From contig NZ_CP147020.1 of assembly GCF_037126435.1 (NCBI RefSeq), forward strand, positions 1,779,293 to 1,843,292: a stretch of DNA of 64,000 nucleotides, read 5' to 3'. Of the stretch, positions 5,443 to 5,477 are shown piece after piece. A program made the position numbers and the translations under genes. Position 1 is the first letter of the stretch, and every line of letters begins with the position of its first letter. The notes beneath the pieces were generated by a model that worked only from the letters and a program-made list of their open reading frames with translations, did not search any database and had not been told where the DNA came from. The stretch is from Bernardetia sp. ABR2-2B. Lineage in GTDB: Bacteria > Bacteroidota > Bacteroidia > Cytophagales > Bernardetiaceae.

Positions 5443-5477
5443 AGACCCTAAGGGTTTCTGAAAACCCCTTAGGGTCT
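5443..5477. repeat. Palindromic REP-like element AGACCCTAAGGGTTT..AAACCCCTTAGGGTCT (copy 1)
   Basis: GC-rich (for this genome) inverted repeat read directly in the sufB 5' region. Near-identical copy at 35546-35579. Confidence 0.85.

Follow-up and report, generated by a model that had tools for sequence, protein, structure and literature searches.

Two palindromes in the 64-kb window (the whole stretch of 64,000 nucleotides of Bernardetia sp. ABR2-2B DNA that was analysed) are, with high confidence, copies of a REP (repetitive extragenic palindrome) family associated with RAYT enzymes (REP-associated tyrosine transposases), whose members have a stem of 15–17 bp and the general layout a-GACCCTAAGGGTTT-(2–5 nt loop)-AAACCCTTAGGGTC-t. 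In many genomes the family occurs in multiple copies, most of them between genes; compensatory changes preserve its stem, and its copies flank RAYT genes on both sides. Since Chloroflexota and a number of further phyla have this hairpin as well, the element is not, as judged from sequence, a regulator specific to the suf and sdh genes beside which the window copies lie. An earlier note on this DNA had compared the palindromes to the REP/BIME elements of enterobacteria, and of this analogy the REP part is right, the element being multi-copy, mostly extragenic and found on the flanks of RAYT genes, whereas the mosaic architecture of a BIME, with alternating inverted units and linkers, is not seen at the window copies, both of which are single.

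The two copies, neither of which is assigned a strand, share the stem AGACCCTAAGGGTTT/AAACCCTTAGGGTCT. Copy 1 (5443–5477) is a hairpin of the form AGACCCTAAGGGTTT-CTGAA-AACCCCTTAGGGTCT, with arms of 15 nt, a centre of 5 nt and one extra C that results in a one-base bulge, and its stem equals the family consensus of the outside loci (at least 120 stretches). Copy 2 (35546–35579) is a perfect 34-bp palindrome, AGACCCTAAGGGTTTTG/CAAAACCCTTAGGGTCT, with perfectly paired arms of 17 nt. Within the 64-kb window the exact 12-mer AGACCCTAAGGG occurs at the two copy sites only, once per strand at each, and relaxing the search to the 9-nt core CCCTAAGGG yields a sole extra match at 6412, which is unrelated. 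The size, 34–35 bp with a stem of 15–17 bp, is that of a REP (an imperfect palindrome of about 20–40 bp that forms a stable hairpin). The GTAG/CGTC tetranucleotide, the mark of most REP super-families described so far, was not found at the foot of the stem, where nearly all copies of the family have AGAC/GTCT, and the Rfam search of the whole window returned no family at gathering score. The arms are also individually near-palindromic (ACCCT-A/T-AGGGT), a point absent from the earlier note. Predicted folding is strong in every form of the element: RNA of the gene strand folds at −22.7 kcal/mol for copy 1 and −28.1 kcal/mol for copy 2 (z = −4.8 and −6.2), RNA of the opposite strand almost equally well, and single-stranded DNA at −13.3 and −15.8 kcal/mol, respectively. 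The sequence check thus bears out the coordinates given earlier for both palindromes, the description of a stem-loop that is symmetric between strands, and the contrast drawn between GC-rich elements (47–49%) and their background (32% for the window).

All four genes around the two copies are encoded on the minus strand. Copy 1 lies in a 209-nt spacer between a dciA-like gene upstream, which is not a suf gene (5602–5925; Pfam DciA PF05258, E = 1.8e-14), and sufB downstream (3935–5392; Pfam SUFBD_core, E = 2e-77), at a distance from the SufB start that is, as had been reported, 50 nt. This spacer probably also contains the sufB promoter. A candidate −7 promoter box of the Bacteroidota type, TACTTTTG, is found by motif match on the minus strand at 5522–5529, about 45 nt upstream of copy 1, and should this box be used, copy 1 would be placed in the sufB 5′ UTR, so that the earlier note's label of a sufB leader is plausible; the motif, TAnnTTTG, is of low specificity, since it matches 135 times over the window and shuffled sequence leads one to expect 105 ± 10 matches. 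The window-wide excess of TAnnTTTG is consistent with a Bacteroidota origin. Copy 2 occupies the 85-nt spacer between sdhA and sdhB, as the earlier note had placed it, 5 nt past the stop codon of sdhA (35585–37519; Pfam FAD_binding_2 and Succ_DH_flav_C), which lies upstream, and 46 nt ahead of the start of sdhB (34729–35499), whose homologs are named succinate dehydrogenase/fumarate reductase iron-sulfur subunit. As a separate observation, sufB and sdhB have an identical start context, AAAATTATGGCAGAA (window positions 5380–5400 and 35487–35507), and both proteins begin with Met-Ala-Glu; this is probably a coincidence.

The distribution of the hairpin was established with a DNA pattern scan over one genome per prokaryotic species, using GACCCTAAGGG-N4-20-CCCTTAGGGTC and tolerating up to 3 mismatches per arm. 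At least 120 stretches were retrieved, every one of them with the same stem, which usually extends over a-GACCCTAAGGGTTT...AAACCCTTAGGGTC-t, with the A/T pair at its outer end and TTT/AAA at its inner end; the loops are variable. Among the matches listed, the majority belong to Anaerolineae, Caldilineae, Ardenticatenaceae and other Chloroflexota (50–68% GC); at least 8 loci were found in each of two Anaerolineae/Chloroflexota assemblies and 4–6 in several more, and Bernardetia sp. OM2101, whose genome is complete, has at least 3 copies. The matches listed also include further Bacteroidota (a Bernardetia MAG, a Cytophagales MAG, Rikenellaceae, Bacteroidaceae, Perlabentimonas and Porphyromonadaceae) and further phyla (Cloacimonadota, Caldisericota and Gemmatimonadota). 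The cross-phylum matches come mainly from metagenome bins, for which mis-binning is possible, and this affects neither the Bernardetia isolate genome nor the window. Since the identical stem is abundant in Chloroflexota, the family probably entered the Bernardetiaceae lineage by horizontal transfer. In Bernardetiaceae the density of copies is low, with 2 in the 64-kb window and 2 decayed ones in about 68 kb of relatives, and some Chloroflexota loci have clusters of REPs (L029, L054 and L110). In the searchable literature the exact sequence of the element was not found, the only matches being unrelated and of primer type. Among the viral sequences of IMG/VR, seven stretches on four contigs (57–69% GC; L215–L221) have the element, one of them with four copies within 2.5 kb (L221, 4507–6973); none of the four contigs has a RAYT homolog, and a phage vehicle is thus without evidence.

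With respect to genes, the placement of 153 copies was determined using crude ORFs: 90 lie between genes of the same direction, 22 between convergent and 12 between divergent genes, 14 fall in an ORF and 15 are found at the edge of a locus, so that 124 of the 138 classifiable copies (about 90%) are outside the crude ORFs. The gap between a copy and its flanking gene is typically 5–30 nt, and beyond the AGAC...GTCT foot the flanks are not conserved among copies. The contexts in Bernardetia, namely ccoNO|ccoQ, ccoP|ccoG, DedA|rhomboid and histidine kinase|response regulator, resemble those of the window; over the whole family, which spans several phyla, the neighbouring genes number more than 150 and are unrelated to one another, encoding transporters, kinases, restriction enzymes and Cas proteins among others. 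At the upstream side, the stop codon of the ORF often comes from the hairpin itself, TAA or TAG being contained in CCCTAAGGG / CCCTTAGGG (for example at 6751–6781 of locus L011; about 17 copies, at a −7 offset), and the Bernardetia histidine kinase ends in ...DPKGFENP, followed by a stop that the hairpin supplies. Such hairpin-supplied stops imply insertion into or against the 3′ ends of genes.

Clustering of the ORFs of the element-selected loci brought out, beside the usual large families, one small family of about 200–230 aa present at five loci, whose sequence carries the HUH and Y motifs NH[F/Y/A]H and YIHxNP. Over 39 sequences, the residues N57-H58-x-H60 and Y142-I-H-x-N146-P are (nearly) invariant. 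The NCBIfam model for the 'REP-associated tyrosine transposase' (NF047646) is matched over its full length with E = 1e-14 and 7e-12, at scores of 45–55 bits that do not reach the curated cut-off of 80 bits; Pfam PF01797 (Y1_Tnp) has no match at 1e-3 in the three element-flanked proteins scanned, and a precomputed match to it is present on a few homologs. Homologs of the family number more than 5,000 at E ≤ 1e-10 and are named RayT in some sources. A profile search of PDB sequences has E. coli TnpAREP (4ER8) as its top match (E = 5e-4), and structure prediction leads to the same protein: the AlphaFold model of a family member (pLDDT 87.7) finds 4er8_A as its best Foldseek match (E = 4.9e-8, target TM 0.76), with the transposases of IS200, IS608 and ISDra2 next in line. 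[quoted passage not shown] Hairpin copies inside called ORFs are located at 4766–4797 of L110, 669–699 of L078 and 889–921 of L084, in frame within RAYT genes, and in-ORF copies are also noted in L213 (2042–2311, 7214–7244 and 8072–8102), including two in hsdM and two in hsdR.

The element is found on both sides of the RAYT gene in five element-selected loci (L041, L043, L078, L084 and L110). Loci retrieved through the protein alone provide an independent test of this arrangement, and here again it is observed in L128/L129, L212 and L213, and partly in L130. In L128/L129 the copies are 16 nt ahead of the RAYT start and 15 nt past its stop, and in L212 and L213 the flanking copies are the compensated variant AGACCCTAAAGGTTT/AAACCTTTAGGGTCT. 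Around distant RAYT homologs the hairpins differ and the design is the same (ACCTAACAGGT, ACCCTTACAAGGGT and ACCTATAAGGT; L124, 9947–9976 and 10621–10672; L126, 9944–9978 and 10769–10803; L214, about 5966–6000 and 6633–6668). The joint variation of protein and hairpin is, at the level of sequence, what is expected of an enzyme and its repeat. The hairpins of the distant homologs, which lie on low-GC, Bacteroidota-like contigs, likewise have self-palindromic arms, and comparison of their sequences suggests a recognition logic, ACC(C)T...A(G)GGT, that would be common to distant RAYTs.

We have also noted where the RAYT gene itself resides. In 5 of the 7 protein-retrieved loci it is housed in a type I restriction-modification operon, between hsdR, hsdM and hsdS; the loci in which RAYT and such an operon are found together are L126 (8057–16955), L128 (7607–13402), L130 (6724–13746), L131 (151–3887), L212 (996–10883) and L213 (867–9992), and the exceptions are L124 and L214. 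In the literature searched there is no report of a linkage between RAYT and type I restriction-modification operons. Additional defence passengers, namely AbiEii, GmrSD and an MNT/HEPN pair, are sometimes found beside RAYT in these operons, and a Rikenellaceae MAG (L043, 2014–7372) presents, as a single case, a cas operon that includes the RAYT gene, in the order Cas3|REP|Cas6b|REP|RAYT|REP|Cas1|REP. Neither the 64-kb window nor the Bernardetiaceae DNA examined contains a RAYT homolog, and the search with the Rikenellaceae RAYT as query returned no homolog attributable to Bernardetia. It may be that the enzyme was lost and the window copies were left behind as orphans.

The conservation of the stem concerns its pairing. 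Among 46 distinct variants, changes on both sides were found in 12 of the 15 stem pairs (35 cells), a level reached by none of 500 shuffles, with slid controls far lower; this outcome may be biased by the ascertainment pattern, and template switching in palindromes can mimic compensation without selection. The excess over shuffles indicates that the hairpin is selected, that is, that a folded single strand is under constraint.

The orthologous spacers give a distinct view of the same element. SdhB of the window, for which an exact look-up gave no recorded match, has relatives at 96% identity (a MAG) and down to 76% (Bernardetiaceae bacterium and Hugenholtzia), and these place the window in Bernardetiaceae. 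In the sdhA-sdhB spacer of the 96% relative the copy has two C-to-T changes, both of which leave G-U pairs in the mRNA; decay has gone further in the 93% relative, whose copy shows one mismatch and one wobble beside two compensated pairs, and into whose spacer a second, unrelated palindrome is inserted further along. In the 92% relative the element is absent and a different 8-bp hairpin is found, and in the 76% relative there is no hairpin. From this comparison of spacers, the sdhA-sdhB copy is an insertion and not ancestral to the operon, since the two nearest relatives have it in decaying form and two that are more distant lack it. The palindromes other than the REP that are recorded in this spacer of relatives are, in L222 (about 5944–5985) an unrelated palindromic insertion of about 40–50 nt, AACGTTAGCAATGGTTTG...CAAACCTTGTTAATCGTT, and in L122 (9941–9958) an 8-bp hairpin, GATAGCTT..AAGCTGTC, that is found nowhere else in the DNA examined. 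For sufB, a metagenome scan with SufB provided 80 other Bacteroidota loci (450 kb), all from distant relatives of at most 81% identity and serving as a negative control, and these contain 0 copies of the element, which excludes a conserved sufB leader element. The earlier note had counted uniqueness to the two sites, together with absence from orthologous loci, as telling against its reading: the element is not unique, being multi-copy in many genomes, and the orthologous spacers are polymorphic, which fits a mobile repeat.

A mechanism that would account for the window copies can be proposed by analogy. The RAYT enzyme would recognise the hairpin in single-stranded DNA, for example at a replication fork, as E. 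coli TnpAREP and the IS200/IS608 enzymes do, and would cut and rejoin DNA beside it, so that copies would be spread or maintained in trans. The biochemistry of TnpAREP and of IS200/IS608 establishes hairpin recognition on single-stranded DNA and adjacent cleavage (PMC6006769). Short intergenic spacers would tolerate the copies that land in them, which would survive there, and the window copies would be such insertions, one in the sdhA-sdhB spacer and the other upstream of sufB. Once transcribed, the hairpin would form a strong RNA stem-loop without a U-tract, and its effect would be at most like that of E. coli REPs, either as a barrier to 3′-5′ exonucleases that protects the upstream sdhCA message or as a processing site.

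The last step leads to the alternative that survives best, namely that the hairpin has been exapted as an RNA element: the stem-loop, in the sdhCAB message and in the sufB 5′ UTR, would block 3′-5′ exonucleases or guide processing, and thereby determine how abundant the upstream message is relative to the downstream one. This reading would hold in addition to the REP identity, not in its place, and we consider it possible but doubtful. Such an effect of REPs on the balance between upstream and downstream message has been shown in the malEFG operon of E. coli. In favour of the reading, the mRNA strand folds into a strong hairpin, and the sdh-spacer copy persists in two relatives, with changes mostly compatible with pairing, while the adjoining spacer diverges. 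Likewise, in the DedA|rhomboid spacer of two Bernardetia species the copy is 33/34 identical, whereas the spacer upstream of it has diverged until only about half of it is identical, and respiratory or Fe-S operons make up 4 of the 7 Bernardetiaceae contexts seen, although seven contexts are too few for a claim of enrichment. Against it, there is no orientation bias of the element relative to transcription, as scored by loop asymmetry (40 vs 39), even though a palindrome would work either way; the absence of the element in the 92% and 76% SdhB relatives indicates that it is not required; and the conservation may be due to maintenance by RAYT or to repair of palindromes by template switching. 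The earlier note took the placement within the sdh operon to suggest differential processing or stability of sdhB versus sdhCA mRNA; this suggestion is not supported here, as the gene strand has no U-tract and the element no orientation bias. Because a stem competent for pairing is retained in relatives, a REP-like role as stabiliser or processing site at sdh or suf is worth considering, and, by analogy with E. coli, we put it forward tentatively.

We regard as rather unlikely a wider scheme built on the REP identity, in which a cross-phylum REP/RAYT module is carried inside defence operons and seeds hairpins, some of which would then be kept by compensatory evolution as RNA elements in the sdh, suf and cco operons of Bernardetiaceae.

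That the palindromes are intrinsic (Rho-independent) terminators or attenuators evolved in place is very improbable. Both are GC-rich stem-loops, and copy 2 is weakly flagged as terminator-like, but on the plus strand, antisense to the genes; copy 1 is flagged on neither strand, and on the gene (minus) strand the stem is followed by no U-tract at either copy. Identity over thirty bases, at sites that are unrelated and in different phyla, is, moreover, hard to reconcile with local evolution. The palindromes of the window that do resemble terminators carry A/T-run flanks and are all mutually different. These other long palindromes are located at 52353–52399, 11983–12024, 34658–34695, 59719–59756, 10955–10992 and 2554–2598, have A-run and T-run flanks (e.g. 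AAAAAAGACC...GGTCTTTTTT), are unlike the REP and look like ordinary bidirectional terminators.

Slightly less probable still is an operator or riboregulator of Fe-S and respiratory genes, in which the nested palindromes would bind a dimeric regulator of suf, sdh and cco. Each arm is a near-palindrome (ACCCTnAGGGT), the arms are about two helical turns apart, and the Bernardetiaceae contexts include sufB, sdhB, ccoQ and ccoG, all of which this reading would explain. It is nevertheless already largely refuted by the diversity of contexts, with more than 150 unrelated neighbours in several phyla and RAYT genes among the genes flanked, by the absence of the element from the 80 other sufB loci and from the orthologous sdh spacers of two relatives, and by the co-variation of stem pairs, which speaks for recognition of a folded single strand and against that of a fixed duplex sequence. 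As for other classes of repeat, a CRISPR repeat (no array, irregular spacing), an integron attC site, a DNA uptake sequence (the element is not species-specific) and a sequencing adaptor artefact (variable loops, varied contexts and presence in the complete genome of an isolate) were all rejected.

The window is thus best annotated as containing dispersed REP copies, which are neither a control site shared by suf and sdh nor terminators. REP/RAYT systems have been studied mainly in Proteobacteria and are often regarded as bound to their lineages and inherited vertically. In the present case, Bacteroidota of 32% GC and Chloroflexota of 55–65% GC share a 30-bp stem that is nearly identical, and the recurrence of the RAYT gene in type I restriction-modification operons offers a concrete and testable route by which repeats would cross phyla. 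With a protein of about 210 aa and a hairpin of 34 nt, the pair also constitutes a compact system in which to study RAYT specificity.

Comparison with the REP/BIME and TnpAREP (4ER8) system of E. coli reveals a hairpin palindrome of 30–35 bp that is likewise multi-copy, extragenic and often within operons, and an HUH-Y1 gene flanked by the repeat, with an enzyme model that best matches 4ER8. Unlike the E. coli REP, the element has no GTAG foot, its stem is longer and almost perfect, its arms are self-palindromic and its window copies are single, and the enzyme is about 16% identical to TnpAREP over aligned residues. A closer likeness is found within the classification of these enzymes, in which TnpAREP subclass 2.4 (Quentin et al. 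2018) equals RAYT group 4 (Bertels et al. 2017). Group 4 is known from 17 classes and is frequent in Cyanobacteria, Chlorobia and Caldilineae (Bertels et al. 2017), and subclass 2.4 is described as having long REP hairpins, the HuH motif NH[IFV]H, the Y motif YIxNNP, a GT[AG]G foot and an in-frame REP insert (Quentin et al. 2018). The present system has a long hairpin, a HuH motif of the NH[IFV]H type, a patchy spread over classes that include Bacteroidetes and Caldilineae, and a variable insert between HuH and Y with in-frame REP copies, all as in subclass 2.4. It differs from this subclass in its Y motif, YIH[Q/R/K]NP, which together with a conserved W-x-Y-S-S is nearer to subclasses 2.6 and 2.1, and in a repeat that lacks the GT[AG]G foot. 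The supplementary tables of PMC6006769 have no entries for Flexibacter, Anaerolinea or Caldilinea. As both the Y motif and the foot mismatch subclass 2.4, we have filed the system, on its sequence motifs, at class level, under TnpAREP class 2, with a REP of the 'untagged' kind.

The other two systems with which the element can be compared differ from it in their tags and in their gene content. The subterminal hairpins of IS200/IS605 elements are recognised as single-stranded DNA by a related Y1 HUH enzyme (Foldseek hits 2–26), but they end an insertion sequence that carries a gene, whereas in the present family the hairpins are scattered on their own, with the enzyme gene in low copy number. 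The GTAG/CGTC-tagged REP super-families occur in several phyla, with some copies in coding sequence, and co-transfer with RAYT has been proposed for them (Di Nocera et al. 2013, PMC3733652). Like these, the present family consists of short stem-loop repeats spread over several phyla, but its foot, AGAC...GTCT, carries neither tag, and in this respect it fits the 'untagged' palindromic repeats of that paper.
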